Part shown: one piece after another, positions 18,646-52,049 of the stretch
Numbering within the stretch: the stretch's first letter is position 1
Layout: each line of letters begins with the position of its first letter
Assembly: GCA_017467165.1 (NCBI GenBank)
Contig: JAFTST010000051.1
Coordinates: 11,952 to 75,951, forward strand
DNA: 64,000 nucleotides
Reading direction: 5' to 3'
Source of the DNA: Clostridia bacterium
Lineage (GTDB): Bacteria > Bacillota > Clostridia > Oscillospirales > CAG-272
Notes under the pieces: model-generated
What the model was told of the DNA's origin: nothing
The model's database searches: none
Seen by the model: only the letters and a program-made list of their open reading frames with translations
Position numbers and translations under genes: made by a program

Positions 18646-18658
18646 TATATTTTTTATA

Positions 18659-21327: not shown

Positions 21328-21360
21328 ATTTCAGTAACACTCTATTTGTATATCCAAATA

Positions 21361-23457: not shown

Positions 23458-23528
23458 ATTCACACGGTACGGCACTAAACTTACTCTGTAAGAATCAGTT
23501 GTTTTTTCTGATGTAAACTAATATTTAC

Positions 23529-23566
23529 AAGCGGCATACTGCTTTGTCAGGGGTGCCGCTTTTTTC
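23529..23566 (+). terminator. Intrinsic terminator after the phosphatase gene
   Basis: AAGCGGCA ... TGCCGCTT stem followed by TTTTTC. Confidence 0.65.
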
Positions 23567-23579
23567 TAAGTAATTTTCT

Positions 23580-23935: not shown

Positions 23936-24159
23936 CTCAAAACTAAAGTTTTTCTACATATAATCCCTCCATTTAGCTTCAAAAAAGCTCTATTGTGTTA
24001 GGGAAGCTGACGCCAAAGGGGCACTAGGGATTGTTTTTCGCTCTGAGTTCTGATAAAGTACCTTTGTCACGTTATTTAAAAAAGCTTCGATGTCTTGTAA
24101 TCTTGTTTTTAAATCAGCTTCTCCGTGTTGGATTCCTTTAACTATTTGTCACTAATTTT

Positions 24160-32022: not shown

Positions 32023-32044
32023 TGTGATATAGTAACTTTTTTTG

Positions 32045-32075
32045 AAAGGGCGGTTTTCGGACCGCCCTTTTTTTG
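32045..32075 (+). terminator. Intrinsic terminator (upstream boundary of the novel cluster)
   Basis: GGGCGGT tttcgg ACCGCCC followed by TTTTTTTT. Confidence 0.8.
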
Positions 32076-32215: not shown

Positions 32216-32244
32216 TTGACATACTAATGTGCGTGTGTTAAAAT
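32216..32244 (+). promoter_or_regulatory. Consensus sigma-A promoter with an extended -10, driving the Hsp70/GTPase cluster
   Basis: TTGACA (32216-32221), a 17-nt spacer ending in TGT, then TAAAAT (32239-32244). It lies 55 nt upstream of the ATG at 32300. Confidence 0.6.
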
Positions 32245-32299: not shown

Positions 32300-33463
32300 A
32301 TGGACGAAAAAATCAATTCGGTGCCCGAGGCTACCGAAGAAGTGTCTTCGAACAACGTGACGGTTGCTGACGTTTTCGTTGACAATCAGGACGACGAGGT
32401 AGAATGCGTTGCCGCTGCGAAGGCTGTCGAGTGCGCCACTCCCGCTGTTGAGGCTGCCCAGTGCGAGGAGCCTGCTGTCGAGTGCGAGGAGTCCGTGTGT
32501 GAGGCTGCCACCGAGGCAGAGCCCGCTGTGGTTCCCGGCGCAAGCGTTGAGGAGATTAAGCAGCTTCTCGAGCTTATCGCTCCCCACCTTGCCGCAGTAA
32601 GAAATCAGATAGTTCACTACAAGGAAAAGGATGTGAATATCACCAAGGCCAACAAAATAATGCAGGATTACCGCGAGGGCTTCGAGGAGAAGATGTTCAA
32701 ATCCGTTGCTATGGAGCTTATCTCGCTTCGCGAGAGCTGCAGAAAGACCGTCAGGGAGTTTGGTATGCGCCAGCTCTCGCTCGACGAGTACAAGAAGTAC
32801 CTCGGCTTCCTCGTGTATGACTACGAGGACTTGCTCGTTAACCTCAACATCGTTATTGACGGCGATAAGGTTATCTACAACAAGAGAGATATATCCGAGG
32901 CTCCCGTGAGCAAAATTACCCTCGCCGAGATTGAGGAGCAGACCTACCCCGAGCTTCCCGAGATAACCGACTACACCTTCGAGGGAATAGCGAATTATCT
33001 CGCCAGCGTCGAGAGCTACTATGACTCGCTTCTCAAGGACAACGCCGTGCGTGACAGGGCAATAGGCACCTATATCGACCACGCGGCGCTCTACGAGCAG
33101 GGCGTGTATCAGGTTATGCTCTATCCCGTTATCTCGAGAATCGCGAGATTCTACGACAAGCTCTCGGCAGACGTCAAGGAGTGCGTTGAAAATCTCACAG
33201 AGGATAACGCAGGAGAGCTCTACTGCGGCTGTATGACACGCACCGCCAACGCTCTTGAGGGGATGCTCAACGAGTGCGGAGTGCTTATCGACGAGTACGT
33301 TTCGGACAGCTATGAGCTCAGAAAGCACAGGCTCTTAAAGACCGTGCCCACCGACGACCCCGCCCTGAACGGCAGAATCGTCAAGAGATACTGCGACCTC
33401 TACACTATGGGTAACGAGGTTATCTATCAGATGAAGGTCGACGTGTATAAGGCGACTACTTAA
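32300..33463 (+). CDS. Hypothetical protein with an acidic Cys-containing repeat N-terminus and a helical region with weak GrpE-like character
   Basis: 387 aa with a GGAAGGA RBS. The N-terminus carries VECVAAAKAVECATPAVEAAQCEEPAVECEESVCEAATEAE. The central segment KANKIMQDYREGFEEKMFKSVAMELISLRES...LVYDYEDLLVNLNIVIDGDKVIYN resembles the GrpE dimerisation helix plus beta-domain pattern by eye only. Confidence 0.7.
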   Translation: MDEKINSVPEATEEVSSNNVTVADVFVDNQDDEVECVAAAKAVECATPAVEAAQCEEPAVECEESVCEAATEAEPAVVPGASVEEIKQLLELIAPHLAAVRNQIVHYKEKDVNITKANKIMQDYREGFEEKMFKSVAMELISLRESCRKTVREFGMRQLSLDEYKKYLGFLVYDYEDLLVNLNIVIDGDKVIYNKRDISEAPVSKITLAEIEEQTYPELPEITDYTFEGIANYLASVESYYDSLLKDNAVRDRAIGTYIDHAALYEQGVYQVMLYPVISRIARFYDKLSADVKECVENLTEDNAGELYCGCMTRTANALEGMLNECGVLIDEYVSDSYELRKHRLLKTVPTDDPALNGRIVKRYCDLYTMGNEVIYQMKVDVYKATT

Positions 33464-33517
33464 TCAAAGCGCGATATTAAAATTCATATAAAAACAAAAT
33501 CCAAAAGGAGAAACAAA

Positions 33518-35125
33518 ATGGCAAAGAAAATCGGAATTGACCTTGGTACCACATATTCCTGCGTGAGCTACGTAGACGAAATGGGTATCGTCAGAATCCT
33601 CGACAACAGAGAGGGCGAGCAGACCACTCCCTCGGTTGTATTTTTCGAGGAGGACGGCAGAGCAGTAGTTGGATCTACTGCAAGAGACGCGGGCGCTATG
33701 AACCCTGAGAGAATCGTTGAGAGAGTTAAAAACTACATGGGTGACGCTGACTACCGCTTCTACGCTAACGGTAAGGAGTACTCTGCGGCGGCAGTTTCCT
33801 CTCTTATCCTGAAGAAGCTTATCGAGGACGCTGAGCTTGCTCTCGGCGACGAGATCGAGGGCGCGGTTATCACCTGTCCCGCATACTTCGGCGACGGCGC
33901 GAAGTACGCTACCAGAGCGGCAGGCGAGAACGTAGTTCTCTCCAACGGACAGAACCTCCAGGTTCTCCGTATCCTTGACGAGCCTACCTCCGCGGCTATC
34001 GCATACTGCAACTCCAAGCACGAGGATATGGACAAGACCGTTCTTATCTACGACCTTGGCGGCGGTACCTTCGACTGCACGGTTATGAAGATAACCATCA
34101 ACGGCGACGAGAAGGTCAGACAGGCTATCACCACCGGCGGTAACCACCAGCTCGGCGGTAAGGACTGGGATGCGGCTCTGGCTGAGATAGTCAGAAGCAA
34201 GTTCTGCGACGCTACCGGCGCTGACGAAAACGAGATGATGGCTGACCCCGAGTGCATCGCTTGGTTCAGCGAGAACATCGAGAAGGCTAAGAAGAACCTC
34301 ACTTCCAGAGAGTCCACCACCCTCACCCTCAACTGGGGCGGCTACAAGGAGAGAATCGAGGTTACCCGCGAGGAGTTCGAGGAAGCAACCGCTCCCCTTC
34401 TTGACCAGACTATACTTCTTGTCAACGATATGTTCGAGAAGAAGGGAATGAACGTTATCAGCGATATCGACGAGATTATCCTCGTCGGCGGTTCTACCTA
34501 CATGCCTCAGGTTACCAACAGACTCAACGCAGAGTACAACAAGCCCCTCACCAGCTACGAGCCCAACAAGGCAGTTGCAATGGGCGCGGCTATCGTTGCA
34601 AGCGAGTGGACCGAGCAGCAGGAGGCACCCCTTCCCATCGGCTTTGGCGGAGCAGGCGACGAGCAGCAGGAGACCCCCGTCGTTACCGACGCTATTCTTT
34701 CCAAGAGCTACGGTCTTCGTATCGTGAGCGGCGGCGAGTACAAGGTTCTCAACCTCGTATATAAGGACAGCCCCAAGCCCTGCGCAGGCAACTCCGCAGA
34801 CGCAGGTCAGCCCCTCGTTATCACCAACAGCGCAGACCTCGTTGATGAGGTTCCGATTCTCGTCCTTGAGAACACCAGCTTCGAGAGAATTATCTCTCTT
34901 GACGAGTGTGACCCCGTATTCGTAGAGGAGCCCATCAAGTTTGACGGCGCAGTTCCCGGAAATAACGCGGTATCCGTTGAGATAGCGGTTGATATCGACG
35001 GTATAGTTACCCTTTCTCTTACCGACCTCGTTACCGGAAGAACCTATCAGATGAGACCCAAGAGAAAGCTCGACGACGTAGTTTCCATCGGTATGGCAGA
35101 CGCTCAGAGCACCTCTCTGATGTAA
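33518..35125 (+). CDS. Hsp70-family ATPase, short form lacking the alpha-helical lid (paralog 1)
   Basis: Contains GIDLGTTYS (phosphate 1), IYDLGGGTFD (phosphate 2) and ILVGGSTYMPQ (adenosine motif). At 535 aa it is shorter than the roughly 610-640 aa of DnaK. The C-terminus keeps only a beta-rich segment. Confidence 0.9.
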   Translation: MAKKIGIDLGTTYSCVSYVDEMGIVRILDNREGEQTTPSVVFFEEDGRAVVGSTARDAGAMNPERIVERVKNYMGDADYRFYANGKEYSAAAVSSLILKKLIEDAELALGDEIEGAVITCPAYFGDGAKYATRAAGENVVLSNGQNLQVLRILDEPTSAAIAYCNSKHEDMDKTVLIYDLGGGTFDCTVMKITINGDEKVRQAITTGGNHQLGGKDWDAALAEIVRSKFCDATGADENEMMADPECIAWFSENIEKAKKNLTSRESTTLTLNWGGYKERIEVTREEFEEATAPLLDQTILLVNDMFEKKGMNVISDIDEIILVGGSTYMPQVTNRLNAEYNKPLTSYEPNKAVAMGAAIVASEWTEQQEAPLPIGFGGAGDEQQETPVVTDAILSKSYGLRIVSGGEYKVLNLVYKDSPKPCAGNSADAGQPLVITNSADLVDEVPILVLENTSFERIISLDECDPVFVEEPIKFDGAVPGNNAVSVEIAVDIDGIVTLSLTDLVTGRTYQMRPKRKLDDVVSIGMADAQSTSLM

Positions 35126-35497
35126 AATCACCCAAGGGTGAGAAAACTCCCACCGCCGAGAAATCGGCGGTGGGTATAAAAAGAAAATGACACCAGGGCT
35201 CTGTCGGAAAAACGCGGACAGACGCCTGTGGCAAGGATATACGACCGGGAAAAAGCACTTGAAAATAAGAGTGACAGGGCGCCCCCGGCGAGCCCTGCGA
35301 GCCGTCACGGCTCGGAATAAAGGCGGGATGCGGTGGAAAAACGGCTCACCGCGAAATACAGGTCGCGGCGCGCAGAGGTCAAAGGGCTGTGAGATGCCGC
35401 GGGAATGACTTTCCTGAGGGAATAAAGATGCTTCTGACCTTTCGGAAAATGATAAATTGAAAGCAACAGCCCCGAGAGGGACTTAAAGGAGATATAT

Positions 35498-37096
35498 ATG
35501 GCGAAAAGAGTAGGAATAGATTTAGGTACGTCCAACTCCTGTGTCAGCTACGTCGACGGTAGGGGAATAGTCAGAATCCTCGACAACAGCGAGGGCGAGC
35601 AGACTACTCCATCTGTCGTTTTCTTCGAGAAGAACGGCAGAGCGGTCATAGGAAAAAGCGCGCGAAGCGCGGGCGCGCTCGAGCCCGAGAGAGTGGCAGA
35701 GCGAGCTAAGGAGCATATAGGCGACGCGGATTATTGCTTCGAGGTGAATAACAGAGAGTATTCTGCCGCGGCGATATCCTCGCTGATAATCAAAAAGCTG
35801 GTTGAGGACGCGGAGGCGGCGCTCGGCGAGGAGATAGAGGGCGCGGTTATCACCTGCCCCGCATACTTCGGCGACGGAGCGAAGTACGCCACGAGAGTAG
35901 CGGGAGAAAACGTTACCCTCTCGGGCGGCAGAAGCCTTAACGTGCTCAGAATTCTCGACGAAACCACCGCGTCGGCTATCGCGTACTGCGACGCCATACA
36001 CACCGACGTTTCCAAGACCGCGCTTATCTACGACCTTGGCGGCGGTACCTTTGACTGCACCGTTATGAAAATAGACGTGCGCGGCGAGGAGAAGAAAAGA
36101 CAGGCTATCACCACCGGCGGCGAGCACGGACTCGGCGGCAAGGATTGGGACGCGGCTCTCGAAAAAATAATCAGAGAAAAGCTCTGCGAGAGTATGCAGA
36201 TTGACGCAGACTATCTCTCCGAGGACCCCGAGTACTCCGAGTGGATATGCGAAAACCTTGAAAAGATAAAGAAAATGCTCACCACCAAGGATATGGCGGT
36301 GATATCGGTTGACTGCGAGGAGGGCAGGTGCGTCGTGGACGTCACCCGCGCCGAGTTTGAAGAGGCAACTCAGCATCTGCTCGCGAGAACCGTACATATA
36401 ATAGACGATATGCTCGAAAAAAGAGGGCTTGATGCCGAGAGGGATATAGATGAGATTATCCTCGTCGGCGGAGCGTCGAGAATGCCTCAGATAAAAAGAG
36501 CGCTCACCGAAAAATACAAAAAGCCCATAACCCCCTTCGAGCTTGACCGCGCGGTTGCTCTGGGAGCGGCGATAGTCGCAGAGAGCTACTCTACCAAGAA
36601 AGAGGCCGCGCTTGCCTTTGGAGCGGCGGCGCTACATTCGAGCGAAATGAAGGCAACCGACAGTATTCTCTCAAAGAGCTACGGCATCCGTATCGTCAGC
36701 GGAGGAGAGTACAAGGTTCTCAACCTGCTCTACAAGGACACTCCGAAGCCCGCCAGAGGCGACTCGAAGTCGGCGGGAATTGAGCTTCGTCTTTCCAACA
36801 ACTACGGCTACGTTTCGGAGGCGCCGATACTCGTGCTCGAAAACACGAGCAGGGAAACGCTGGTGCCCATATCCGAGTGCGACCCCGTGTTCGTCGAGGA
36901 GCCTATCCGCTTCGGCGGCTCGGTGTTCGGAAAGAACAAGGTTTCCATCGAGATTGCCGTGGATATTGACGGCATAGTTACCCTGTCCTTGAAGGACCTC
37001 GACGTTTCACATTCCTTCAAGATGCGCCCGACAAGAAAGCTCGACAGCGTTATTGACCTCGGAATGGAGGAGGCGCAGAGCATCACCCTGGCATAA
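35498..37096 (+). CDS. Hsp70-family ATPase, short form lacking the alpha-helical lid (paralog 2)
   Basis: Contains GIDLGTSNS, IYDLGGGTFD and ILVGGASRMPQ. It aligns along its whole length with paralog 1, with long identical runs such as IEGAVITCPAYFGDGAKYATR and LIYDLGGGTFDCTVMKI. Confidence 0.9.
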   Translation: MAKRVGIDLGTSNSCVSYVDGRGIVRILDNSEGEQTTPSVVFFEKNGRAVIGKSARSAGALEPERVAERAKEHIGDADYCFEVNNREYSAAAISSLIIKKLVEDAEAALGEEIEGAVITCPAYFGDGAKYATRVAGENVTLSGGRSLNVLRILDETTASAIAYCDAIHTDVSKTALIYDLGGGTFDCTVMKIDVRGEEKKRQAITTGGEHGLGGKDWDAALEKIIREKLCESMQIDADYLSEDPEYSEWICENLEKIKKMLTTKDMAVISVDCEEGRCVVDVTRAEFEEATQHLLARTVHIIDDMLEKRGLDAERDIDEIILVGGASRMPQIKRALTEKYKKPITPFELDRAVALGAAIVAESYSTKKEAALAFGAAALHSSEMKATDSILSKSYGIRIVSGGEYKVLNLLYKDTPKPARGDSKSAGIELRLSNNYGYVSEAPILVLENTSRETLVPISECDPVFVEEPIRFGGSVFGKNKVSIEIAVDIDGIVTLSLKDLDVSHSFKMRPTRKLDSVIDLGMEEAQSITLA

Positions 37097-37218
37097 CCGA
37101 TGAAGGGCTGCCGCGCGGCAGAAAAGAGCTTTCGCGCGGGGTGGGGTCACTACAGCCCGAAGAAACAGTCAAAAAAATAAAAAACATATAGGCTCGTATG
37201 AGCCAAAAGGAGACGAAA

Positions 37219-39324
37219 ATGGCAAAGATTAACGTTGGTATCGACCTTGGCACAACCTATTCTGCGGTTGCGACCTTCTCCAAGGAGGAGGGAAAGGTTA
37301 AGCTTCTCAAAAACAGCTACGGCAAGGAGTTCACTCCCTCTGTTCTGTGGATTGAGAACGGCAAGGTATCCATCGGTGAGGACGCGAAGGCAGAGCAGAA
37401 GGCGGGAAATACCAGCACGGTAGCCTTCTACAAGAGTATGATGGGTGACGATAACTATCGCGCCTACATCGACGGCAAGGAATACTCCGCTATGGAGCTT
37501 TCCACTATGTATCTTCGTGAGCTCAAGGCGGAGATTGAGAGAGAAAACGGCGTACAGATCGGCGGCGCGGTTATCACCGTACCCGCATACTTCAACGAAA
37601 AGCAGAGAAATCAGACAAGACTCGCAGGAGAGAAGGCGGGCTTCAAGGTATTCATGCTTCTCAACGAGCCCACCTCGGCTATTATCGCCTACGGTCTGAC
37701 GGGCGGCGGAAAGAAAAACGTGCTCGTCTATGACCTTGGAGGAGGTACCTTCGACGTTACCGTAGCGGAGGTTAACGGAACTGCCATCAACGTTCTCGCT
37801 ACCAACGGTAACCACCAGCTCGGCGGCAAGGACTGGGACCAGGCGCTTCTTGACGAGATTGTTGACAGATTCAGATACGAGCACGGAGTGGATATCAAGT
37901 ATTATCCCAACGAGCTCTCCGAGCTTCAGGTAAAGTGCGAGGACGCTAAGAAAAAGCTCTCCAGCCTTTCCTCCACCACCATCTCCATCGTCTGCGACGG
38001 CGTAACCGGCAGATTTGACGTCACCCGCGAGGAGTTTGACGAAAAGACCTCCGGTCTTCTCAACGAGACCTACCTGCTTATCAACGATACCTTCAACGAG
38101 ATTGGCGCGGCAAGAGGAACCTCCTTCGGCTGGGCTGATATCGACGAGGTTGTTCTCGTCGGCGGCTCTACCAGAATGCCTCAGGTAAGAGATATGATAG
38201 TCGCAGAGTACGGCAGAGCTCCCATCACCAAGGATATCAACGTAGATACCATCGTAGCATCCGGCGCGGCAATGCAGGCTGAGCTCTGTGTCAGCAGCAC
38301 CATCTGCCTGACCGTAGTCGACAAGAAGGCTACCCAGGCAACGGGAAAAACTCAGGTTGCTACCCTTACCATATCCAACGCGGATATCAAGGATATCACC
38401 GCGCACAGCCTCGGTATGCTCGCTATGGCGGCAGACGAAAAGAGCTATGTCAACAGTATAATTATCCCCAAGAACAGCAACGTCAACGTTCCCTTCGCCA
38501 AGGATTTCGTCTTCGGCGGCAAGAAGCTTGACGTCTACGTCCTTCAGGGCGAGTCGAGAGACCCCCATCAGACCGCTATCATAGGCAGATATGAGATTAC
38601 CGGTATGAAGGGCGATAAGAAGGAAAATATCACCGTCACCTTCCTCTACAACTCCGACGGAGTAGTCGAGGTTACCGCCCGTATCAAGGGAGGAGCCGAG
38701 CTTCGCGTCGAGAGAAAGGACGTAGCGGAGGATATGACCGATATAATCAACCGTCTCAAGAAGGAGGCGGACGAGGCCAAGAATGCAAGAAAGGTCGAAA
38801 TCACCGTTATCATCGACGTATCGGGAAGTATGAGCGGCGACAGAATCGAGAAGGCTCGTCAGGCGGCTCGCGGCTTCGTTGACGACGTTCTGAAGATTCC
38901 CGGAGCTACCATTTCTCTTATCGGATTCGCAGACAGCGAGCAGTATGCCTGCAAGAAGTCTAGAGATAAGCAGGCTCTCTACGATGCTATCGCGGGCATC
39001 TGGAACCTTCCCGTAGGCGGCGGCACCAGCGGTAAGCCCATCGCATACTGCTACCGTGACTATGACAGAGACGCGGCTAAGGTAATGATAGTCCTCACCG
39101 ACGGATATTGGGGCAACCAGTCCTCCGAGATTTCCGCATCCGACGCGGCAAAGGCAGAGGGCATCATAATCTACGGTATAGGCATCGGCGAGGCAGACCA
39201 GACATTCCTTGATCGCATCTCCAGCGGCAAGGGCAAGAAGGTTGACCTCTCCAACCTCGGCGGCGCGTTCCGTGAGGTTGCCAGCAGCATCGCTACCGAG
39301 ACGGGCAACGGCTCGCTTATCTAA
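37219..39324 (+). CDS. Hsp70-family ATPase fused to a C-terminal von Willebrand factor A (vWA) domain
   Basis: I chose the start at MAKINVGIDLGTTYSAV because an AAGGAGA RBS precedes it. DLGGGTFD and LVGGSTRMPQ are present. The C-terminal part (roughly 38790-39324) has the MIDAS motif IIDVSGSMSGD plus LTDGYW and IYGIGIG. Confidence 0.9.
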   Translation: MAKINVGIDLGTTYSAVATFSKEEGKVKLLKNSYGKEFTPSVLWIENGKVSIGEDAKAEQKAGNTSTVAFYKSMMGDDNYRAYIDGKEYSAMELSTMYLRELKAEIERENGVQIGGAVITVPAYFNEKQRNQTRLAGEKAGFKVFMLLNEPTSAIIAYGLTGGGKKNVLVYDLGGGTFDVTVAEVNGTAINVLATNGNHQLGGKDWDQALLDEIVDRFRYEHGVDIKYYPNELSELQVKCEDAKKKLSSLSSTTISIVCDGVTGRFDVTREEFDEKTSGLLNETYLLINDTFNEIGAARGTSFGWADIDEVVLVGGSTRMPQVRDMIVAEYGRAPITKDINVDTIVASGAAMQAELCVSSTICLTVVDKKATQATGKTQVATLTISNADIKDITAHSLGMLAMAADEKSYVNSIIIPKNSNVNVPFAKDFVFGGKKLDVYVLQGESRDPHQTAIIGRYEITGMKGDKKENITVTFLYNSDGVVEVTARIKGGAELRVERKDVAEDMTDIINRLKKEADEAKNARKVEITVIIDVSGSMSGDRIEKARQAARGFVDDVLKIPGATISLIGFADSEQYACKKSRDKQALYDAIAGIWNLPVGGGTSGKPIAYCYRDYDRDAAKVMIVLTDGYWGNQSSEISASDAAKAEGIIIYGIGIGEADQTFLDRISSGKGKKVDLSNLGGAFREVASSIATETGNGSLI

Positions 39325-39471
39325 GACATATTCGGGAATGGAATAACCCATTTTCAAAAGCCGACGCTTCGATGCGTTGAAAAAACAATTCAAGCCACGG
39401 GCTGTGACGGATTTTTCCCAAGGATTTCGCATCATAGCCCGATGCATAACGTCTGACTGAAAGGTATAAAA

Positions 39472-42400
39472 ATGGCAGTTGTAAGGACACCTGACGAATT
39501 AAAAAATCCGGATTTTAACTATTATCTGGCGTTCCAGATAGACCCCAAGGAAAGAGATTCAAAGAAAATAGATGAAAAGCTGCGTACCAGACTCGGTAAC
39601 GCGGGCGGCTCGCTTATGACAAGAAGATACAACGAGCTCCGTACCGATATAATCGAGATAATGGTCAACGACTCCATATACGACGCCCAGAAGGACAGCT
39701 ATATTCAGGGCAAGGGCGGAAGAGCGAAGGAGCTAGCGGCGGCTAAGAAGTTCAAGCTCGACGAGGCAAGAGAACTCGCAGAGGACAGATGCAAGAAGAA
39801 CAAGGTTGTTCTTCGCTCGCAGCTTGACGATATATATAACGCTATCAACAGACAGTCGGTATACTTCACCAAGGATGAGTATAACGCCGAAATAAAATAT
39901 CTCGAGCAGCAGACCACTATCATAGAAGACGACTCCAAGGAGATACCCTTTGGCCAGTATGAAAAGCTGGACGATTATCTGACTACGCTCGGATATGAAA
40001 ACGTGTTCGCCTTTCTTTCTTCATCAGGCTCGACAATCACCGAAAAGAGCCCGCCCGACGAGATAAAGAAGGCGAAGGACGCCGTCTACTCCTTGGGAAA
40101 CAAGACTGCCGATATGAAGAAAAAGCAGGCGACGAGCAACCTGTGCGGTATCGTCGAAACCATAATGGTCAAGGACCCCAAGGGCGCTCGTACCTACTCC
40201 AACTATCTCGCTACGCGCGGCGTGGTATGGGATAAGATGGCTCACAAGAAGAGGGTCGGACTCACGGATATGACTCTCGACGAGTTCACAGGCTTCGTTC
40301 AGGAGATAATGGGTATCCTCGGGCTTTCGCTTGCCGAGGCTCAGAAAATGCTCGCTATCGGCTGCAGATACTTCCGCGTGGTGCTGGTAGACGTTACCCC
40401 GGGACAGAAGGAGGACTACCTCGTTGAGTGTCCCTACGACGACTGCGGCAGAGTGTTCAAGAAGGGGCTCAAGATTTGTCCCCACTGTAACCGCTCCATA
40501 GAAGCGCCCTGCTGGAACTGCGGAACGCTCATCAATCTTAACGCGGCGAAGAAGGGCTGCTCCGCTTGCGGAGCGACCACCGGCTCAAGAGCCATACTCG
40601 AGAGAAAGTGCTCGGAGCTTGACAGCCTTTTGGTCAAGACCGACGTTTCGGTTCCCGACCTCAAGTCCAAGCTCCAGGAAATCAAGGGAGTTGTGCCCGG
40701 CTACGAAAAGCACAGGAACTCCGAGGTAATGAGAAGAGTTACCAGGTACGAGGCGTCCGTGCAGAGCCGAGTCAAGCTTGAGGAAAACACAGGCAACGCA
40801 TACAGGGCGGAGGTCGATAAAGTCCGCACACTCGTCGGAGAAAAGAAATATCAGACCGCCTACCAGATGGCAAGGGGTCTTAAATCAAAGTACAGCTCGT
40901 ACAATACTCAGAACACCGATAAGCTCATAGCGGATATCAAGAAGGTGGTCGACGTTGCCGACAGGCATATGGAGCAGGCGAAGCAGGCAATGCTCCGCGG
41001 TGACGAAAGGAACGCTATTGAGTACGCTATCAAGGTCAATGAGCTCTGTTCTGACTACAGCGATACAAGACTTATTTTCCTTAAATTTCCCCCGAAGACT
41101 CCCGTCGGAATCAGAGCCGCTCTTGAGGGCGAGAAGGTTCGCATAGAGTGGGCAGAGGGAGCAAAGCAGGATTATATCACCTACACTGTTATCAAGAAAA
41201 ACGGCGTTCCCCCGTCATCTGCCGACGACGGCTCGGTGCTCGAGGGAGGAATATCCATTCGCTACGCCGAGGACAAAAATATCGTTTCCGCCGTACCCTA
41301 CTACTACGCGGTATACGCGGAGCGCTTCGGAATAAAGTCATCCCTGTCTATAACTCCCACACCCGTGTCGATATTCAAGGAGGTAGAGGACGCTGAGCAG
41401 CTGTTCCTCACTCCGGGTATAAAGGTTACCTGGCGTCCTCCCCAGAACGTCGCCTCGGTTGAGGTCTGGAAAAAGCAGGGCGTAGTCGCTCCCATAAAGG
41501 CAGGCGACGGTGTCAAGGTTCCCACAGACGGAAAGAGCTTCTACGATGAGAAGGCAGTCGGAGAAAACTCCTACCTGATTATATGCAACTACAGGGTTGG
41601 CACTCAGGCAGTTCAGTCCAAGGGTATAAGGCTCGTTCTGAAGCCCTTCGAGAACATAGCCCCCGTTACCTCCGCGAGTTTTTCGCACGTAGGGGATAAC
41701 AAATTCGCCTTCACCTCCGACCCCGTCAAAACGGGCAACGTATATCTCTACTTCTCGCCCACCAAGCCCTCGATACAGTATTCGGTTGCGCAGAGATTTA
41801 TCGATTTCGGCACCGTTTGTCCCGGATTTTCGAGGCTGACGGCTACCACGGGCGCAGACGGAGCGCTGAGGGTTATAGTTCCCAGAGAGAAAATCGGCTA
41901 CGTCTATCCCATAGTGATGACAGACCAGCTCTTCGTGGTTTCCGAGCCCTTCGCGGTAAATACCCTTTCGGGTATCAAGGACCTTCAGTATTCCTTCGCG
42001 GCCAACAGAGGCGTGGTTACCGTCGAGGGCAAGCTTCACCCATCGGCGAAGAATATCGTGGCGAAGATAAGCCATAAGGACTTCCCCGAAACGATGGAGA
42101 GCGAGGGAGAAAACTTCACCTTCACCGCCGACGACTTCAAGCAGGACGGAAGAATAGAGATAAACCTCCGCACCAACACGATAAACTACATAACCCTTTT
42201 CGTAGAGTTCTACGAAAACGGAAGCACGACCTACTCGCTCCCCGTCACTCTTGATACTCCCATAGATTACAGAGAAACGGTAAGGGTGAAGTACTGTATC
42301 AACTACAAGACCTCAGCTGTCAAAAAGTTCGACGTGGTTATCACCTACGAGGCGACCGAGGCGGTTACCATTCCCTCGGTGGTGCTGGTGAAGGGTGACC

Positions 42401-42597
42401 CCATACCCCTCAGAAAGAGCGCGGGAGAGCTCTGCGAAAGGCTCGACCCCGTAGACCTCGATTATAGCTTCATCTCGAAGAAGTATAAGAAAAAGGTTAC
42501 GGTGAAGGTTGACCCTGTCAGAACGGGAATGAAGTTTGAGATTTTCCCGAGCGCCGAGGGCGGACACGTCAAGCTTATCGCGGTCGATAAGCTCTGA
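39472..42597 (+). CDS. Large (1041 aa) protein with a central double zinc ribbon and C-terminal beta-rich (Fn3/Ig-like) modules
   Basis: The Cys clusters CPYDDCG...CPHCN...CWNCG...CSACG lie at roughly 40425-40575. Two segments have an Fn3-like pattern (VRIEWAEGAKQDYITYTVIKK..YYYAVYA; IKVTWRPPQNVASVEVWKK..SYLIICNY). I do not recognise an enzymatic motif. Confidence 0.8.
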   Translation: MAVVRTPDELKNPDFNYYLAFQIDPKERDSKKIDEKLRTRLGNAGGSLMTRRYNELRTDIIEIMVNDSIYDAQKDSYIQGKGGRAKELAAAKKFKLDEARELAEDRCKKNKVVLRSQLDDIYNAINRQSVYFTKDEYNAEIKYLEQQTTIIEDDSKEIPFGQYEKLDDYLTTLGYENVFAFLSSSGSTITEKSPPDEIKKAKDAVYSLGNKTADMKKKQATSNLCGIVETIMVKDPKGARTYSNYLATRGVVWDKMAHKKRVGLTDMTLDEFTGFVQEIMGILGLSLAEAQKMLAIGCRYFRVVLVDVTPGQKEDYLVECPYDDCGRVFKKGLKICPHCNRSIEAPCWNCGTLINLNAAKKGCSACGATTGSRAILERKCSELDSLLVKTDVSVPDLKSKLQEIKGVVPGYEKHRNSEVMRRVTRYEASVQSRVKLEENTGNAYRAEVDKVRTLVGEKKYQTAYQMARGLKSKYSSYNTQNTDKLIADIKKVVDVADRHMEQAKQAMLRGDERNAIEYAIKVNELCSDYSDTRLIFLKFPPKTPVGIRAALEGEKVRIEWAEGAKQDYITYTVIKKNGVPPSSADDGSVLEGGISIRYAEDKNIVSAVPYYYAVYAERFGIKSSLSITPTPVSIFKEVEDAEQLFLTPGIKVTWRPPQNVASVEVWKKQGVVAPIKAGDGVKVPTDGKSFYDEKAVGENSYLIICNYRVGTQAVQSKGIRLVLKPFENIAPVTSASFSHVGDNKFAFTSDPVKTGNVYLYFSPTKPSIQYSVAQRFIDFGTVCPGFSRLTATTGADGALRVIVPREKIGYVYPIVMTDQLFVVSEPFAVNTLSGIKDLQYSFAANRGVVTVEGKLHPSAKNIVAKISHKDFPETMESEGENFTFTADDFKQDGRIEINLRTNTINYITLFVEFYENGSTTYSLPVTLDTPIDYRETVRVKYCINYKTSAVKKFDVVITYEATEAVTIPSVVLVKGDPIPLRKSAGELCERLDPVDLDYSFISKKYKKKVTVKVDPVRTGMKFEIFPSAEGGHVKLIAVDKL

Positions 42598-42685
42598 TGA
42601 CTTTGAGAATAAGTAACACTTCAGCAGAGTAAAATGAAACAGGCAGGGCGCCACGCGGGCGCCCAAGCCAAAAGGAGATTTAAAA

Positions 42686-43837
42686 ATGAGCAAGTTCACC
42701 TGCCCGTACTGCTACCGGATCCACGAGGAAAAGACCTGCGGCGTCAAGTGCTCCTATCGCAACCACAGAAACGTGATGGAAACCTGTGTCGACGCATCAA
42801 AGCCCGGCTTCGTTGACAGGAAGGACCAGTACGGATATATACTTCCGCAGTTCAGAAAGACCTGCGCTAAATGTAAGTCGGCGGGAATGAAATACTACTG
42901 CAACGTAGCTAACAAGGAAATCCCCCGCGACTTCCTCAACGGCCCCAGCTTTTCGGTAGCTATACTCGGAGCGAAGGCGTCGGGAAAGTCGAATTACATA
43001 GGCGTTCTTATCAACTCTATCAAAAACGAGATGTCCAAGAGCTTTAACTGTATTCTAAATACAGCGGCGAGCGAGGAGTCCTGGGACCAGTACAACAACC
43101 ACTACTACGAGCCCCTTTTCAATCAGAAGGTAGTTATTCCCGCTACGGCTAACGATATTCTGCCTCCTATGATATTCCCCCTTCGCTTCCTCGAGTCGAA
43201 GATGTTCAACAAGAATCAGTACAAGGTCGACAAGGTTGCCGCCCTGACCTTCTACGACACCGCGGGAGAGAAGCTTAACTCCACGGACACGATGCTGGCA
43301 GAGAACCAGTACATCACCAACGCTAACGGCATTATTCTTCTGCTCGACCCGCTTCAGGTTCCCTCTGTCAGAGAGCAGCTCCGCGGAAAGATGCAGCTCC
43401 CCGCGCAGAACTCGGATACCGCCGAGGTTCTGGCGAAGATTATTGAGACCATAAGAATGGTGAATAAGGTCAGAGGAATAATAGATATTCCCATCGCGCT
43501 CGTATTCACTAAAATAGACGTGCTTGAAAAGTTTGACCTTCTCAGAGAGAACAGCGTTCTGTATCAGGAGTCGGAGCATCTGGCGAGAGGTATTTTCGTC
43601 AAGGATGACTTCAACGCGGTTAACCGCGAGATGCGCGCACTGATAGACAACTGGGTGGACAGCGACCTGTCACAGCAGCTCAAAAACTTCAAGACTGTCG
43701 CTATGTTCGGCGTTTCGGCGCTTGGCGGAATTCCCGTCGGCGCAAAGCTTGAGGCGGGTAAGATAACCCCCCGCCGTGTGCTTGATCCTCTCCTGTGGCT
43801 GTTCGCAGAGAAGAAGTACATCAAAACCGATAGATAA
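42686..43837 (+). CDS. Zinc-ribbon-fused P-loop GTPase (soluble; TRAFAC-type motifs)
   Basis: N-terminal CPYC...CGVKC...CAKC...YYC. GTPase motifs are G1 GAKASGKS, G3 YDTAGE, G4 FTKID and G5-like VSALG. An AAGGAGA RBS is present. Confidence 0.85.
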   Translation: MSKFTCPYCYRIHEEKTCGVKCSYRNHRNVMETCVDASKPGFVDRKDQYGYILPQFRKTCAKCKSAGMKYYCNVANKEIPRDFLNGPSFSVAILGAKASGKSNYIGVLINSIKNEMSKSFNCILNTAASEESWDQYNNHYYEPLFNQKVVIPATANDILPPMIFPLRFLESKMFNKNQYKVDKVAALTFYDTAGEKLNSTDTMLAENQYITNANGIILLLDPLQVPSVREQLRGKMQLPAQNSDTAEVLAKIIETIRMVNKVRGIIDIPIALVFTKIDVLEKFDLLRENSVLYQESEHLARGIFVKDDFNAVNREMRALIDNWVDSDLSQQLKNFKTVAMFGVSALGGIPVGAKLEAGKITPRRVLDPLLWLFAEKKYIKTDR

Positions 43838-43852
43838 TTATAGGAGGATAAT

Positions 43853-46800
43853 ATGAAGGCTTATCAGATGGTATACACCGCCTGCGGAAAGACCAAGAAC
43901 GGCGACTACGACGTTTGGGGACACTCCTCCGCTCTTGACTACAAGGAGTGCGGTGAAATTGACAAGATAATGAGCTATCAGCGCCCCAACGGCGCTCCCT
44001 TCCAGCCCACCGAGGAGGAGATAAAGCAGTATTTCCCGAAGAAGTACGGCTACTTCTACACCTCGTCGGGAAAGGCGTGTATAGCGCAGTCCTCTCACGT
44101 CGGACGCGTCTACTCGGACGTTGACGAGAGATGGGGTAACTATGTTACTCACGCGCTCTGCTTCGCATCGGATATTGATTTTTCTCCCTTTGATATATTC
44201 GGCGCTCCCGTTTTCAAGGATAAGCTCACCTACAAGGAGTGGCACGACGACCCCTCGCCCGAGAGTCTTCCCGAGATAGAGGTAACGATACCGAAGGGAA
44301 GGGCAGTATCGGGTGTGCCCGCGCTTCTTTCAGACAGCAGAAAGAAGAATATGCTCCCCGCATTCGTGCAGGCGGTTATCAATACCCTTGAGACTAACGA
44401 TAAGGCTGTCGTGGTTTCTCTTTCTGACGAGGAAATACCCACTCTGCTCGCGCTTGTCGGCGTGGCTCTGCCGAAATTTATGCACAAGAAGGTCACCTTC
44501 CAGACTCAGTACAGGGCTACGGGCAACTACGGTGACACCACCGTGCGCGCAAGAGTACAGTTCCCCCTCAACAGATCGACCTACGGCTTCGTTGACGATA
44601 TGAGAGCGGGAAAGACCGTCTTTAACTTTGACACGGGAGATTTCACCGACGTTAAGGTTGGCGGATACGTCAAGGGTGTATTTGCCGCGCTGAACGGTGG
44701 AATTGACGCGGCGGAGAGATACGCCGCATCTATCGGCAAGGCTATGACCGAGCTTCACTGCGATATTGAGGCGGCGGCGCTCGTTGGCGCGCTTATGGGC
44801 GGAAAGTACAATGATTTCGACAGCCCCGCTCACTACGAGAGCGTGCTTAATATGCTGATCGACGCTAAATATATTAATAAGGAGGAGTATGCCTCCAGAG
44901 TGTACAGCGAGATAGTTGCTAAGGCAATCTGGCCCTTCAACACCGAGCTGTCGGGGCTTATCCGCTTCGCCTACGAGAACGGCGGACAGAGCATCAGAAA
45001 CGAGCTCGTCTTCAGGGTTATGAAGTCGCTGTCTGCGTTTGGTATCACGCTCGCCTCGCCCACAGAGCAGGCGTTTGACTCCTTCAAGAGAGGACTTCCC
45101 ATTGACTACAAGGGAGTTGTTTCAGCTGCTCTCACCGACCAGCGCTGGACTGCTCTTACCGAGAGCGCTGACGAGGCTCTCACCTACGTTATCCTGAGAA
45201 TCTATATAGACGCTCTCAAAACTCCGTCCGCCTCTACCGCAGAGAATTATATTCTCAGAATAGCGAAGAAGGCGTATGAGAAGGCCGGACTTGACGCGCT
45301 TGTGACAAATCTCTCGCTGCTCGGCGATAACAAGCAGCTTGCCGACAGGCTTATATACTCCACCGTTGGCGCGCTCTTCGGAAAGGGCTCACTCAGCGAA
45401 AAGGAGCTCTCGCTCGCATTTGACGGCGCGCTTCTTCTTTCTACAAGAGGGGCAAGACGCGACGCCACCCTCGCTATTATCAAGGGCAGCCTCAATTCGC
45501 CCGCTCTCATTTCGGTCTATACCGACAAAAAGGCGGCAAATCCTCAGGCGTTCGCAGAGCTTGAGAGGGAGCTGTCGGGCGAGGCAGAGTTCGTAGAGTT
45601 CGTCAAGAGGTGCAGACTTCTTGAGTTCAAGAATAAACAGACGGTTACTCCCGCAGAGCTTGACCGCTACTTCAAGGAATACTATATCACAGGCGAGGAC
45701 GACGGCACTTACCTGAAGAAGCTCGACGCGCTTATCGGCGCGAAGCGCCAGGTCGGCGACGCTGTCGAGGCGCTTTTGGACGTCTATACCAAAAACTGTC
45801 CCGCTGACGATAGCTCCGCGCTCTGTCTTGACGTGGTTTCCTATATCGAGAAAAAGATATTCTCCTACCCTCTGTCCGAGCTTATCAAGCTTCGCGCATC
45901 GGTAATTAATCAGGTAGCGCAGATTGACGCAAGGCTCAAGGGAGCTCGCCGCCAGACCAGCGGTCAGTATGAGCTTCTCTATACCGCGATGCTCATCAGC
46001 AGAAAGACACCGAGAGAGGTTCTCTACGCGGCTGTTGAGGGCAAGAAGATATACGAAAGACTTTCGCCCGAAAAGCTGGAGCTTTTCGCTCGCAGCTTCA
46101 CTACCGAGGCTGTTGCTCTGTACGTTGATATGAAAAGGAAGGATAAGAAGCTCGGCAAGCAGCAGCTTATGACGGCTATCATTCATCCTCTTCTCAGCAA
46201 GGTTAAGGATAGTAACCTGTACTTCACCAAGGCAATCAAGGCGCAGAGATTCGAGGACGGAGCAGAGCTCGTCGCTGACCTTATGTGCTACGCCTTCAAC
46301 ACCGAGGGCGGATTTGCTGACAGGGCTCGCGATTTCGTTAAGTACTACGTTTCTACCCTGAAGCGTCCCGAATATAAGAAGCTCTTCAAGCTTATCAAGG
46401 CAATTCTCACGCCCAAGGAGTACGCAGGCCCGAAGAAGTTCATCAACGACCACCTCAACAACAACCGCAGCTTCCTTGAAAAGCTCTTCGGAGCGAAGAA
46501 GGCGGGCGATGACGATGAGGATGAGGACGACGAGGACGAGGACGAAAAGGAAAGCGACTCGGAAAAGAATAAGCCTGTCGAAAATAAGAAGGACGAAAGG
46601 CGTCCTGACGGAAAGCAGAGCGCAGAAAGGCGCCCCGACGGGAAGACCCCTGAAAGACCCGACCCGAGGAAAAACGAGCATAGAAGACCCGATACGAGAA
46701 ATTGGGAGGACAGACCCACCGACAGCTCGAAGCACAACGAGAAAAACAGAAAGTGCCAAAGATGCGGCAATTACTATTCCTCCGAAAAGTTCAGCGCCTG

Positions 46801-46984
46801 CCCGAGATGCGGCGAGGTTGCAAGACGCCCCGAGGGTGAGAAGGAAAATGGACACAGATGCCCCGAGTGTGGCGCTCCCTATACGGAGAAGGACAGATTC
46901 TGCTCGAGCTGTGGAAAGCCCGTAGGAAAAAAGAGCGTTGATTGGAAAAAGAACAATGGCATAGACGAGGACGATAATGGCTGA
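43853..46984 (+). CDS. Large (1043 aa) mostly helical protein with an acidic/basic low-complexity tail and two C-terminal zinc ribbons
   Basis: AGGAGG RBS. The tail reads DDDEDEDDEDEDEKESD...RRPDGKQSAERRPDGKTPERPDPRKNEHRRPDTR, followed by CQRCG..CPRCG and CPECG..CSSCG. Confidence 0.8.
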   Translation: MKAYQMVYTACGKTKNGDYDVWGHSSALDYKECGEIDKIMSYQRPNGAPFQPTEEEIKQYFPKKYGYFYTSSGKACIAQSSHVGRVYSDVDERWGNYVTHALCFASDIDFSPFDIFGAPVFKDKLTYKEWHDDPSPESLPEIEVTIPKGRAVSGVPALLSDSRKKNMLPAFVQAVINTLETNDKAVVVSLSDEEIPTLLALVGVALPKFMHKKVTFQTQYRATGNYGDTTVRARVQFPLNRSTYGFVDDMRAGKTVFNFDTGDFTDVKVGGYVKGVFAALNGGIDAAERYAASIGKAMTELHCDIEAAALVGALMGGKYNDFDSPAHYESVLNMLIDAKYINKEEYASRVYSEIVAKAIWPFNTELSGLIRFAYENGGQSIRNELVFRVMKSLSAFGITLASPTEQAFDSFKRGLPIDYKGVVSAALTDQRWTALTESADEALTYVILRIYIDALKTPSASTAENYILRIAKKAYEKAGLDALVTNLSLLGDNKQLADRLIYSTVGALFGKGSLSEKELSLAFDGALLLSTRGARRDATLAIIKGSLNSPALISVYTDKKAANPQAFAELERELSGEAEFVEFVKRCRLLEFKNKQTVTPAELDRYFKEYYITGEDDGTYLKKLDALIGAKRQVGDAVEALLDVYTKNCPADDSSALCLDVVSYIEKKIFSYPLSELIKLRASVINQVAQIDARLKGARRQTSGQYELLYTAMLISRKTPREVLYAAVEGKKIYERLSPEKLELFARSFTTEAVALYVDMKRKDKKLGKQQLMTAIIHPLLSKVKDSNLYFTKAIKAQRFEDGAELVADLMCYAFNTEGGFADRARDFVKYYVSTLKRPEYKKLFKLIKAILTPKEYAGPKKFINDHLNNNRSFLEKLFGAKKAGDDDEDEDDEDEDEKESDSEKNKPVENKKDERRPDGKQSAERRPDGKTPERPDPRKNEHRRPDTRNWEDRPTDSSKHNEKNRKCQRCGNYYSSEKFSACPRCGEVARRPEGEKENGHRCPECGAPYTEKDRFCSSCGKPVGKKSVDWKKNNGIDEDDNG

Positions 46985-47279
46985 GTTAATCACGGGAATA
47001 CTTAGTGTTGCCATAGTGATAGCGGCGGCAATTCTCGCTATATTCGCTCTTGTGGCTTCCTGCTTCGCAGGAGCTGTTGCGGGAAGCGTGGGTGGCGGTG
47101 GAGCAGGACTTTTCCACACGCTAAAGACCTGCTTTCACACCGTCGACGTCGGCATTAAGAGCAAGGCTATGAGAATTGCAGTATTCGTTCTGCTCGGTCT
47201 TGTCGCTCTTCTTGCCGTAGGGCTCGCGGTGTACGCGATATGCCTGATTATCCCTCTGATAGCTAAGGGGGGCGTATGA
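46977..47279 (+). CDS. Small (100 aa) membrane protein with three predicted hydrophobic helices
   Basis: It overlaps the stop of the upstream gene by 8 nt and has an ATGA overlap with the downstream GTPase gene. Hydrophobic segments are ILSVAIVIAAAILAIFALVASCFAGAVAG and IAVFVLLGLVALLAVGLAVYAICLIIPLI. Confidence 0.65.
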   Translation: MAELITGILSVAIVIAAAILAIFALVASCFAGAVAGSVGGGGAGLFHTLKTCFHTVDVGIKSKAMRIAVFVLLGLVALLAVGLAVYAICLIIPLIAKGGV

Positions 47280-48724: not shown

Positions 48725-48887
48725 GCTCCGCGGTACACAGTCAATCCGTGACCCGTATCGCCCAAGAAAAAAAGACACGGGTGGTGTCATAGACCGATAC
48801 ACCGCCCGTGAATAAAATGAATAAGCGTATTTTTCTGTCCCCGTCGGCGACGCGGATAGGGCAATAAGCTTATCCTATGGAGGAAAA

Positions 48888-49553
48888 ATGGTTTTTTATA
48901 TCAGCTTTGGTATCATTCTTCTGGCTTTTGGAATATTCAACTACGTAGCGTCGATTTTATCCTCGAAGGGAAGACCGATATCGAGCTACGCTATGGCGGC
49001 GGTGCTCAGGTGCTTCGCGGTTGCCATTATGCTCGCCGTGACGGTCTGTCTGTGGTTCGCGACGCCTCGCCTTATCGATTTAGACTGGGATTATGAGGGC
49101 AGGGGGCTGCTTATAGTGGTTTCCTTATTCAACTCCATCATTCTGTGCAGTCTGCCCCTGCCGCTCGTTATACGCAGATTCGGCTCGTCCTTTAACTATA
49201 ACAGAACGAAATTCATGACCGCGTATATAGCGAATATTCTGGCGCTGCTTGCTATCGGATTTGTTGAAACGACGCTTATCTCGCTTGTGACCTACTCCAA
49301 CGCGCTATTTTATCACAGGGATTTCTGGGTCTATGCCTTCTACTTCATTTTCGCAGTCTGCGCGGGCGCGGCGGGATTTTTCTCCGCTTTCTCGGGCGAG
49401 GACGGAATTATCGACAGCTTCACCAGAGATAACTCGTCGATGTGGAATTATATAATGGGCTTCGGAGTATTTCTCCTTGCGGGATTCGCCGGAAACTACG
49501 TTATTATGTTCGTGGTATGGGTTATCCGCGGAATTATCGGTCTTTTCACTTAA
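48888..49553 (+). CDS. Polytopic membrane protein related at its N-terminus to the type A array proteins
   Basis: 221 aa with a GGAGGA RBS. The N-terminal IILLAFGIFNYVASI shares the G-x-x-NYV motif found at the N-termini of the type A proteins. Confidence 0.7.
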   Translation: MVFYISFGIILLAFGIFNYVASILSSKGRPISSYAMAAVLRCFAVAIMLAVTVCLWFATPRLIDLDWDYEGRGLLIVVSLFNSIILCSLPLPLVIRRFGSSFNYNRTKFMTAYIANILALLAIGFVETTLISLVTYSNALFYHRDFWVYAFYFIFAVCAGAAGFFSAFSGEDGIIDSFTRDNSSMWNYIMGFGVFLLAGFAGNYVIMFVVWVIRGIIGLFT

Positions 49554-49639
49554 AGCTCTCAATTATGTCATCAATCAAATAGGTTAAACTCTTCATTAAT
49601 TAAGTAATTAATAAATAAAAAATATAAAGGAGCAACACA

Positions 49640-52040: not shown

Positions 52041-52049
52041 GGAGGAAAA

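Follow-up and report, generated by a model that had tools for sequence, protein, structure and literature searches.

A 64,000-nucleotide stretch of the genome of a Clostridia bacterium (GenBank assembly GCA_017467165.1, contig JAFTST010000051.1, forward-strand positions 11,952 to 75,951; hereafter the window, with position 1 as its first letter) was analyzed around three consecutive Hsp70 genes at 33518-39324. The genes had been picked out in an initial annotation made from the sequence, and their open reading frame (ORF) coordinates and Pfam HSP70 matches agreed with it (E-values of 4.9e-82, 6.1e-75 and 1.4e-95 in gene order). They are held in one co-directional cluster of ~19 kb (32300-51058), which resembles the GAP1-N2-type DO-GTPase conflict operons.

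Three accessory Hsp70 genes

The genes are listed below, with domain boundaries in amino acids (aa) and SBD-beta denoting the beta part of the substrate-binding domain, as predicted.

33518-35125, + strand: 535-aa lidless Hsp70 (copy A), in which a disordered linker joins the ATPase domain (1-365) to SBD-beta (397-512) and the alpha-helical lid is missing
35498-37096, + strand: lidless Hsp70, copy B, 532 aa; duplicate of copy A
37198-39324, + strand: 708-aa Hsp70-vWA fusion, in which the ATPase domain (9-366), an insert (368-393), SBD-beta (405-507) and one helix (513-529) precede a vWA domain (532-703) with a metal ion-dependent adhesion site (MIDAS)

The motifs GIDLGTT/GIDLGTS and DLGGGTFD were readable in the three translations, and the third ATPase motif was present as the variants LVGGSTYMPQ, LVGGASRMPQ and LVGGSTRMPQ. 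Equivalents of the DnaK residues D8, K70, E171, D194, T199 and D201 were invariant across 51 lidless and 55 vWA-fused family members, and the same six were present in all three window proteins; the earlier statement that the actin-fold ATPase motifs are kept agrees with these readings, which predict conserved catalytic sites. The full-length alignment of the 532- and 535-aa proteins, also reported at that stage, was recovered (534 residues, 3 gaps, 61% identity and 77% positives), and each copy was ~43% identical to the ATPase domain of the Hsp70-vWA protein. In the latter, the HSP70 model aligned up to profile position 520 of 599, and the vWA domain came after it (Pfam VWA, 62.4 bits, cutoff 23.8, residues 535-679).

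For class assignment, the proteins were scored against NCBIfam models. The DnaK models (TIGR02350/PRK00290) gave 238-306 bits against cutoffs of 648-822, and the HscA model (TIGR01991) gave 225-277 bits against a cutoff of 708 (225-306 bits against 620-822 for the DnaK and HscA models together). Scores were highest for DnaK, then HscA, and far lower for the PRK11678 'molecular chaperone' model. Because all three proteins fall far under the DnaK and HscA cutoffs, membership of either family was ruled out and, by their profile scores, they are accessory Hsp70s and not DnaK, as the initial annotation had proposed. In genome annotation these genes should not carry the DnaK label.

Housekeeping dnaK in Firmicutes sits in the hrcA-grpE-dnaK-dnaJ operon. 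No canonical dnaK operon was seen within the 64-kb window (dnaA to ileS), and the best NCBIfam and PDB matches of the three proteins were DnaK, followed by HscA; both observations would suit one of the three being the organism's housekeeping DnaK or an HscA-type chaperone. This is highly improbable, as the scores are less than half of the DnaK and HscA equivalog cutoffs, the lid is missing and there is no hrcA/dnaJ or isc context (isc genes were absent from the cluster, and the hscB/isc context of HscA was not found). Moreover, the orthologues sit in a GTPase operon, save at loci where the Hsp70 and GrpE-like genes occur without GTPases, and are missing from most genomes.

Structure prediction for the Hsp70 proteins

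Sequence matches of the short Hsp70s to Pfam and to the PDB (DnaK structures) end at residue ~362-372, so that the last 170 residues are invisible to sequence models. An AlphaFold2 model of copy A was built on 51 family members (mean predicted local distance difference test, pLDDT, 89.5; predicted template modelling score, pTM, 0.88). It contained the ATPase domain (1-365), a disordered linker (369-387), a beta domain (397-512) and then two tiny helices. The model matched full-length DnaK in the ATP-bound open state (4b9q) with a template modelling (TM) score of 0.82 (query-normalised, 572 columns, root mean square deviation 3.6 Å) and lid-truncated DnaK (7kzu) with a TM score of 0.84 (target-normalised), whereas ATPase-domain-only structures reached only ~0.6. 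Since the lid-truncated and full-length DnaK structures match better than the ATPase domain on its own, the beta-rich C-terminus of the lidless proteins is, on this model, a genuine SBD-beta that is cryptic in sequence and docked on the ATPase domain, with the lid absent. Iterated profiles seeded with the lidless C-terminal domain and with the SBD-beta of the vWA-fused protein returned 140 and 135 ORFs, respectively, and the similar yield is consistent with homology of the two domains.

The Hsp70-vWA model (pLDDT 86, pTM 0.67) placed a single helix (513-529) where the lid would be, followed by the vWA domain (532-703), and matched lid-truncated BiP with a TM score of 0.80. The MIDAS motifs are DVSGS at 540-544 and LTDG at 633-636. 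Residues D540, S542, S544 and D635 were invariant in the vWA-fused family, and the Thr position was T or N (GGGTS in the window protein). The vWA domain has an intact MIDAS site by these residues, and metal binding is predicted.

Over both models, lid-truncated constructs of DnaK (7kzu/7krt) and BiP (5o4p/7a4u) were the best structural matches, with TM scores of 0.80-0.84 across the ATPase domain and SBD-beta. Those constructs were engineered from housekeeping chaperones, whereas the truncation predicted for the window proteins is natural and conserved across phyla. The lid-truncated BiP structure 7a4u is deposited as an oligomeric state.

Most of what the initial annotation had said of the C-termini held up under modelling. 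The short proteins, which it had called lidless, end in the two tiny helices only, and the C-terminus of the third protein is replaced by a vWA domain with an intact MIDAS, as it had described. Of a normal substrate-binding domain plus lid, the SBD-beta was found in the model and the lid was not. The remark that an EEVD-like tail is missing stood in part: EEVD was absent from all three Hsp70s, but both Hsp70 families have a conserved C-terminal tail of their own. In families P0001-P0240 the lidless proteins end in GMTL[RK] and the Hsp70-vWA proteins in GNSL[KR], and in the Clostridia group the tail of both families is [ST]-L-[KR]-COOH. The window copies end in TSLM, ITLA and GSLI (at 35125, 37096 and 39324, respectively). 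Distant members of both families have a short hydrophobic C-terminal run, preceded in the lidless proteins by basic residues. In the copy A model the tail was confidently placed (pLDDT ~92), with a beta-bridge at residue 534. Hsp70 clamps prefer Leu-centred peptides with flanking basic residues. Because the tails are Leu-centred with basic flanks, they could be built-in pseudo-substrates and could permit self-docking or chain formation.

Composition of the operon

The features around the Hsp70 genes, in map order, are as follows.

32044-32071: terminator-like hairpin, 3' of the preceding U32-peptidase gene
32216-32244, + strand: promoter-like site, TTGACA-17-TAAAAT with extended TG, 5' of the first cluster gene
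32300-33463, + strand: 387-aa GrpE-like nucleotide-exchange factor; its long N-terminal extension is acidic and Cys-rich
39472-42597, + strand: scaffold protein, 1041 aa; J-like domain, double zinc ribbon, coiled region, beta-rich C-terminal half
42686-43837, + strand: DO-GTPase2 paralogue 1, 383 aa, soluble; PF19993, 31.2 bits (cutoff 27)
43853-46984, + strand: GAP1-N2 protein, 1043 aa; PF20013, 56.4 bits (cutoff 24); directly after the 383-aa GTPase gene
47276-48724, + strand: DO-GTPase2 paralogue 2, 482 aa; PF19993, 35.4 bits; N-terminal transmembrane-like segments, CxxC, DVAGE, TKCD
48888-49553, + strand: polytopic membrane protein, 221 aa; no family match
49640-51058, + strand: DO-GTPase2 paralogue 3, 472 aa; PF19993, 47.3 bits; N-terminal transmembrane-like segments, CxxC

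Because the promoter-like site is a consensus match only, the operon start is a putative one. Just 3' of the copy A stop codon lies a perfect 11-bp GC-rich palindromic hairpin (35149-35174; CCCACCGCCGA...TCGGCGGTGGG), and the 372-bp gap between copies A and B held no convincing small ORF and only this palindrome.

The 387-aa protein upstream of the Hsp70 genes had no Pfam or NCBIfam match when searched by itself. A family profile of 19 orthologues matched GrpE structures in the PDB (1dkg_A, E = 3e-5; 4ani_A, E = 3e-4) and human GRPEL1, and the orthologue in a relative from a Hadza gut metagenome (locus L003) had a weak Pfam GrpE match. By profile comparison, the protein is a divergent GrpE homologue.

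In the scaffold protein, the J-like domain occupies residues ~176-245 (nucleotides, nt, 39997-40206) and the double zinc ribbon residues ~320-367. The scaffold family profile matched J-domain structures at residues ~176-245. All 28 matches of the sub-domain profile at E <= 0.01 were J-domain proteins (best E = 1e-6), and the HPD tripeptide was absent from the window scaffold and from all 19 homologues examined (20 of 20). The domain is, judged from its profile matches, J-like and not a canonical J-domain. The cluster had originally been described as having no J-domain with an HPD motif; this holds for the motif, but the gene next to the Hsp70s encodes an HPD-less J-like domain. The DZR model matched all 20 scaffold family members. 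A second J-like domain at the scaffold N-terminus, which had looked J-like by eye, was rejected (profile-profile probability 1.4%, no PDB match). In several relatives, the Hsp70-vWA gene and the full scaffold gene have between them a stand-alone gene (~260-310 aa) with homology to the scaffold's N-terminal third:

Locus L003, 12211-13134: scaffold-N-like gene
Locus L005, 6239-7126: scaffold-N-like gene
Locus L009, 11093-11977: scaffold-N-like gene
Locus L017, 261-aa ORF: scaffold-N-like gene

The family-defining Walker-B Glu (DTAGE/DVAGE), Walker A and TKxD motifs were readable in the DO-GTPases; paralogue 1 has an N-terminal CxxC zinc ribbon, Walker A GAKASGKS, DTAGE and TKID. Paired CxxC motifs were present in all three, and transmembrane-like windows were found in the 482- and 472-aa proteins by a crude hydropathy scan. 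Orthologues of paralogue 3 come after GAP1 in many related loci. In addition to its PF20013 match, the GAP1-N2 protein had a weak GAP1-M match (E = 0.0068) and Zn_ribbon/DZR matches. It contains a 13-residue run of Asp and Glu only (residues 886-898, nt 46508-46546), followed by basic repeats of the 'ERRPDGK' type and four C-terminal CxxC motifs (zinc ribbons, 46750-46984). The 221-aa membrane protein was found with 97% identity at the same position in a close relative (L084), and its position suggests that it belongs to the system.

Related loci and linkage analysis

The SBD-plus-vWA half of the fusion protein was searched against a library of 1.84 billion proteins (50%-identity clusters), which returned 320 representatives at E <= 1e-10; among the matches listed, most were 680-740 aa long with the match at the same position. 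The Hsp70-vWA family comprises >120 clusters (90% identity) that are 51-63% identical to the window protein, and the lidless Hsp70 family is similarly large. A scan of GTDB species representatives yielded 79 loci, whose ORFs were annotated by iterative profiles. The Hsp70-vWA gene was present in 64 distinct loci, five of them obtained before the GTDB scan, from Clostridia and Christensenellaceae, other Bacillota, Spirochaetota, Bacteroidota, Lentisphaerota, Planctomycetota, Chloroflexota, Poribacteria and Methanosarcina. The closest were from Clostridia and Christensenellaceae (50-56% identity over the C-terminal SBD-vWA query). Genomic neighbourhoods of the loci differ between genomes. Plasmid carriage was rejected: a tblastn search of the Hsp70-vWA protein against 72,556 plasmids gave no close relative, and the matches listed were ordinary DnaK/Hsp70-family genes, all with <60% identity.

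Linkage was counted at loci with at least 4 kb of upstream sequence (n = 48) or at least 9 kb of downstream sequence (n = 49). Upstream, the lidless Hsp70 was present at 46 of 48 and the GrpE-like gene at 47 of 48, and the two loci without an upstream lidless gene were cut by contig ends. Downstream, the scaffold was present at 44, a DO-GTPase at 39 and GAP1 at 38 of 49. The GrpE-like, lidless Hsp70 and Hsp70-vWA genes (the trio) are thus almost always linked. Clostridium and Methanosarcina loci have the trio and the scaffold with no GTPase within the flank, and a subgroup that includes Poribacteria has the trio without GTPases, in the order Hsp70-vWA, GrpE-like, lidless. Because the trio is found without GTPases, it is a separable module.

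The sole trio-only locus scanned (L063, Poribacteria) has CARDB-caspase and ankyrin-repeat genes flanking the trio (5518-8424 and 14180-18081). In Clostridium neuense (L037, 1161-6314), a gene for an SF1 helicase-REase_MTES_1575 fusion and an IS1595 transposase lie upstream of the trio. In the Hadza gut metagenome relative (L003/L004), a faint Syd-like gene and a Tox-HNH-HHH toxin gene are inserted between the two lidless genes (6953-8097), and the scaffold gene is followed by an inserted gene for a TraG/VirD4-like ATPase (16471-17805).

A Neighbor Joining tree of the ATPase domains split cleanly into vWA-fused and lidless clades with largely parallel branching. Two natural fusions were found, one of a lidless Hsp70 with an Hsp70-vWA (P0002, 1233 aa) and one of a degenerate ATPase domain (YDIGATYTKC) with a lidless Hsp70 (P0122, 921 aa). 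The parallel trees and the fusions suggest that the lidless and vWA-fused paralogues work together physically.

Among the 46 loci with a lidless gene, one copy was present in 39, two in five and three in two, and the tree indicated that the extra copies arose independently in several lineages. Copy A of the window was 62-67% identical to orthologues in other genomes. The nearest relative of copy B was copy A (61.8%), apart from the representative of its own cluster (P0173, 98.5%), and further members of the family in the hit set reached <= ~54% (median 49%); copy B stood on a long branch of the tree with its catalytic motifs kept. As copy A is nearest and other members are at most ~54% identical, copy B is a lineage-specific, faster-diverging duplicate.

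The near-obligate linkage, the parallel phylogenies and the natural fusions, which set Hsp70 units in tandem, would also be expected if the lidless protein were an Hsp110-like exchange or holdase partner of Hsp70-vWA (ATPase domain to ATPase domain), in which case the tandem duplicate would give two alternative partners; Sse1 (2qxl) and the Hsp110:Hsc70 complex (3c7n) were among the fold matches. Such a role was considered rather unlikely. The module already has a conserved exchange factor of its own in the GrpE-like protein, which makes Hsp110-like exchange less necessary, and the lidless protein has kept every catalytic residue as well as a docked SBD-beta but is without the extended lid and the insertions of Hsp110.

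Comparison with described systems

GAP1-N2-type DO-GTPase conflict systems were described computationally by Kaur, Burroughs, Iyer and Aravind (eLife 2020, PMC7159879). In the portions of that paper used here, a second, HSP70 theme is set out for Actinobacteria and Firmicutes and proposed to be a thresholded conflict system: it has HSP70 and GrpE, in a subset a second HSP70 without the peptide-binding domain, and an FNIII-repeat protein joined to either a DnaJ domain or TPR repeats. The window, likewise from Firmicutes, has DO-GTPases with zinc ribbons, transmembrane segments and the Walker-B Glu, a GAP1-N2 gene downstream of a DO-GTPase gene, linked HSP70 and GrpE, a truncated second HSP70 and a large scaffold with a J-like domain. 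It differs from the theme, as given in those portions, in several respects. The published second HSP70 is without the peptide-binding domain, whereas the window copies are predicted to keep a cryptic SBD-beta and to be missing only the lid; that second HSP70 occurs in a subset of the published systems but in nearly all loci of the present sample; and in the window the J-like domain is without HPD and the lidless gene is tandem-duplicated. Since the HSP70-vWA fusion goes unmentioned in the text portions used, the match to the theme rests on gene content. One supplementary file of the paper, to the extent used here, contained no HSP70, GrpE or DnaJ strings.

With the DnaK-DnaJ-GrpE system the window set shares an actin-fold ATPase with all catalytic residues, a predicted SBD-beta, a GrpE-fold exchange factor and a J-domain fold in a partner. 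Unlike that system, it is without the alpha-helical lid of the substrate-binding domain (SBD-alpha) and without HPD, and it scores below the equivalog cutoffs. Its GrpE homologue has a 150-200-aa extension, its J-like domain lies inside a 1041-aa zinc-ribbon protein, and the whole occurs in a different operon with a patchy taxonomic distribution.

Two further predicted conflict systems were compared. The MoxR-vWA ternary systems combine an NTPase remodeller with a MIDAS vWA thought to bind peptides, and with variable components (PMC7159879, portions used here). They and MoxR/vWA pairs resemble the window operon in pairing an NTPase with a MIDAS vWA in a multi-gene system with variable components, but the window ATPase is an Hsp70 and not AAA+, its connection to the vWA domain is a covalent fusion, and no MoxR was found in the Pfam scan. 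CnuD/CnuCD of Type III CoCoNuT (Bell et al., eLife 2024, PMC11090510), linked with GTPases of the McrB type, are described as Hsp70-like with degenerate ATPase motifs and predicted RNA binding. They too are Hsp70 ATPase-plus-SBD units in predicted conflict systems that contain GTPases, whereas the window Hsp70s have intact ATPase motifs and their operon encodes TRAFAC DO-GTPases.

The locus is a further example of a computationally predicted, experimentally untouched type of system. The present analysis adds the cryptic SBD-beta, the near-obligatory trio that occurs also without GTPases, the loss of HPD, the fusions, the tail motif and the fast-diverging duplicate.

Proposed function

Hsp70s are the textbook protein-folding machine. 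The three window genes were interpreted as the Hsp70 module of a GAP1-N2-type DO-GTPase conflict operon (~32300-51058), and this putative anti-invader system is the probable, though far from certain, function of the cluster. By homology and synteny, it includes an Hsp70 machine that is self-contained and non-housekeeping, with a GrpE-like factor, a lidless Hsp70 and an Hsp70-vWA protein of its own, coupled to a GTPase/GAP1 core. Conflict-type signs were the varying genomic neighbourhoods, the toxin/immunity and TraG-like insertions in L003, the caspase/ankyrin and helicase-REase/IS neighbours and the hypervariable array of membrane-protein genes downstream.

In the proposed mechanism, GAP1 and the scaffold would sense the trigger and the GTPases would act as the switch. 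The Hsp70 pair, through ATP binding and hydrolysis and with resetting by the GrpE-like protein, would clamp or assemble partners and not fold them. The HPD-less J-like domain would tether the Hsp70s to the scaffold without classical firing of the ATPase, and the vWA-fused Hsp70 would have the lidless one as its obligate partner, the two forming a heterodimer or chain. The vWA MIDAS may capture an acidic peptide from a system component or an invader protein; the poly-acidic run of GAP1 (residues 886-898) is a speculative candidate ligand.

Several points weigh against this assignment. PADLOC models of known defence systems gave chance-level matches only with nine cluster proteins, and the operon lies among housekeeping genes near oriC and not in an obvious defence island. 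The case for a defence role is circumstantial; the sensor-switch-clamp order is inferred, as are the ligand of the MIDAS and the pairing of the Hsp70s as a heterodimer. The FNIII repeats expected of the scaffold had weak sequence support only (in the PDB, one Fn3-like match at E = 0.016; in Pfam, an fn3 match for 1 of the 20 members). A full-text literature search found no other paper on GAP1-N2-type DO-GTPase systems and no experiment on any member, and the silence of the source text on the HSP70-vWA fusion counts on the same side.

The location in core genes near oriC of a spore-former, unlike a typical defence island, together with the lack of PADLOC matches, would fit Hsp70s that are dedicated assembly chaperones for the large and membrane proteins of the operon, which would then serve envelope or cytoskeleton-like housekeeping or development and not conflict. 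The parts list is chaperone-like and full (Hsp70, GrpE homologue, J-like domain), two of the GTPases have transmembrane segments and transmembrane proteins follow downstream. Four observations make this unlikely: the system is patchy across distant phyla and archaea with differing neighbours; the Hsp70 triad occurs also without scaffold and GTPases, beside caspase/ankyrin genes; toxin/immunity and TraG-like genes lie within the operon in L003; and the loss of HPD and of the lid speaks against classical client cycling.

The trio itself could instead be an autonomous, portable effector module in which the Hsp70 cycle is repurposed to self-assembly, with the tails as pseudo-substrates and the MIDAS as a clamp, giving an immune-type clamp or polymer; this was regarded as a doubtful proposal. 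The C-terminal tails would dock into the SBD-beta of their own or the next protomer to form ATP-controlled hetero-oligomeric chains, and the vWA MIDAS would grab an acidic peptide of a partner or invader.

In this conserved, cross-phylum system the ATPase and the beta clamp have been retained together with a GrpE and a J-like anchor, while the lid and the HPD switch have been dropped and a metal-dependent adhesion domain has been gained. This would be a natural experiment in reuse of the Hsp70 cycle for signalling or immunity. The window is a compact, complete example: of its GTPases one is soluble and two are membrane proteins, and GAP1, the scaffold and a further, diverging Hsp70 copy are present as well. 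The cryptic SBD-beta, near-obligatory trio, fusions and tail motif provide concrete hypotheses for biochemistry. The initial annotation had suggested a role other than general folding, and the conserved operon context fits this; its wider picture of accessory, lidless Hsp70s, one with a vWA domain, stands, but it had missed the DO-GTPase/GAP1-N2 system, the GrpE homologue and the J-like domain.

Remaining genes of the window

Downstream of the operon, nine co-directional paralogous genes (51075-59628, + strand) encode membrane proteins without a Pfam match. They comprise two alternating subtypes (~310-335 aa and ~395-411 aa) plus two short ones, and share an HWGW transmembrane core and a 'DIDFxGE...IDGxGHTLSNF' domain. 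Compared with L084, the array proteins were 41-94% identical and the arrangement of copies differed, against 95-99% identity of the flanking genes; the array is hypervariable on this comparison. A scan with one array membrane protein returned one close relative. The array may supply variable components of the GTPase system, its membership being uncertain. It is closed, just before ileS, by a gene for a protein with a transglutaminase-like core (PF01841; 59589-60662), which is 95% conserved in L084.

Upstream, positions 18000-24000 have a G+C content of 34-42%, compared with ~50% in the flanks, and may be of foreign origin or mark a join in the assembly. Three genes were located within this stretch:

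19760-20650, - strand: parB
21361-22122, - strand: parA
22810-23457: histidine phosphatase

Positions 1-18000 are the chromosomal origin neighbourhood, with an alaS fragment, dnaA (5700-7115), dnaN, gyrB, gyrA and RNase J, which places the Hsp70/GTPase operon ~25 kb from dnaA.

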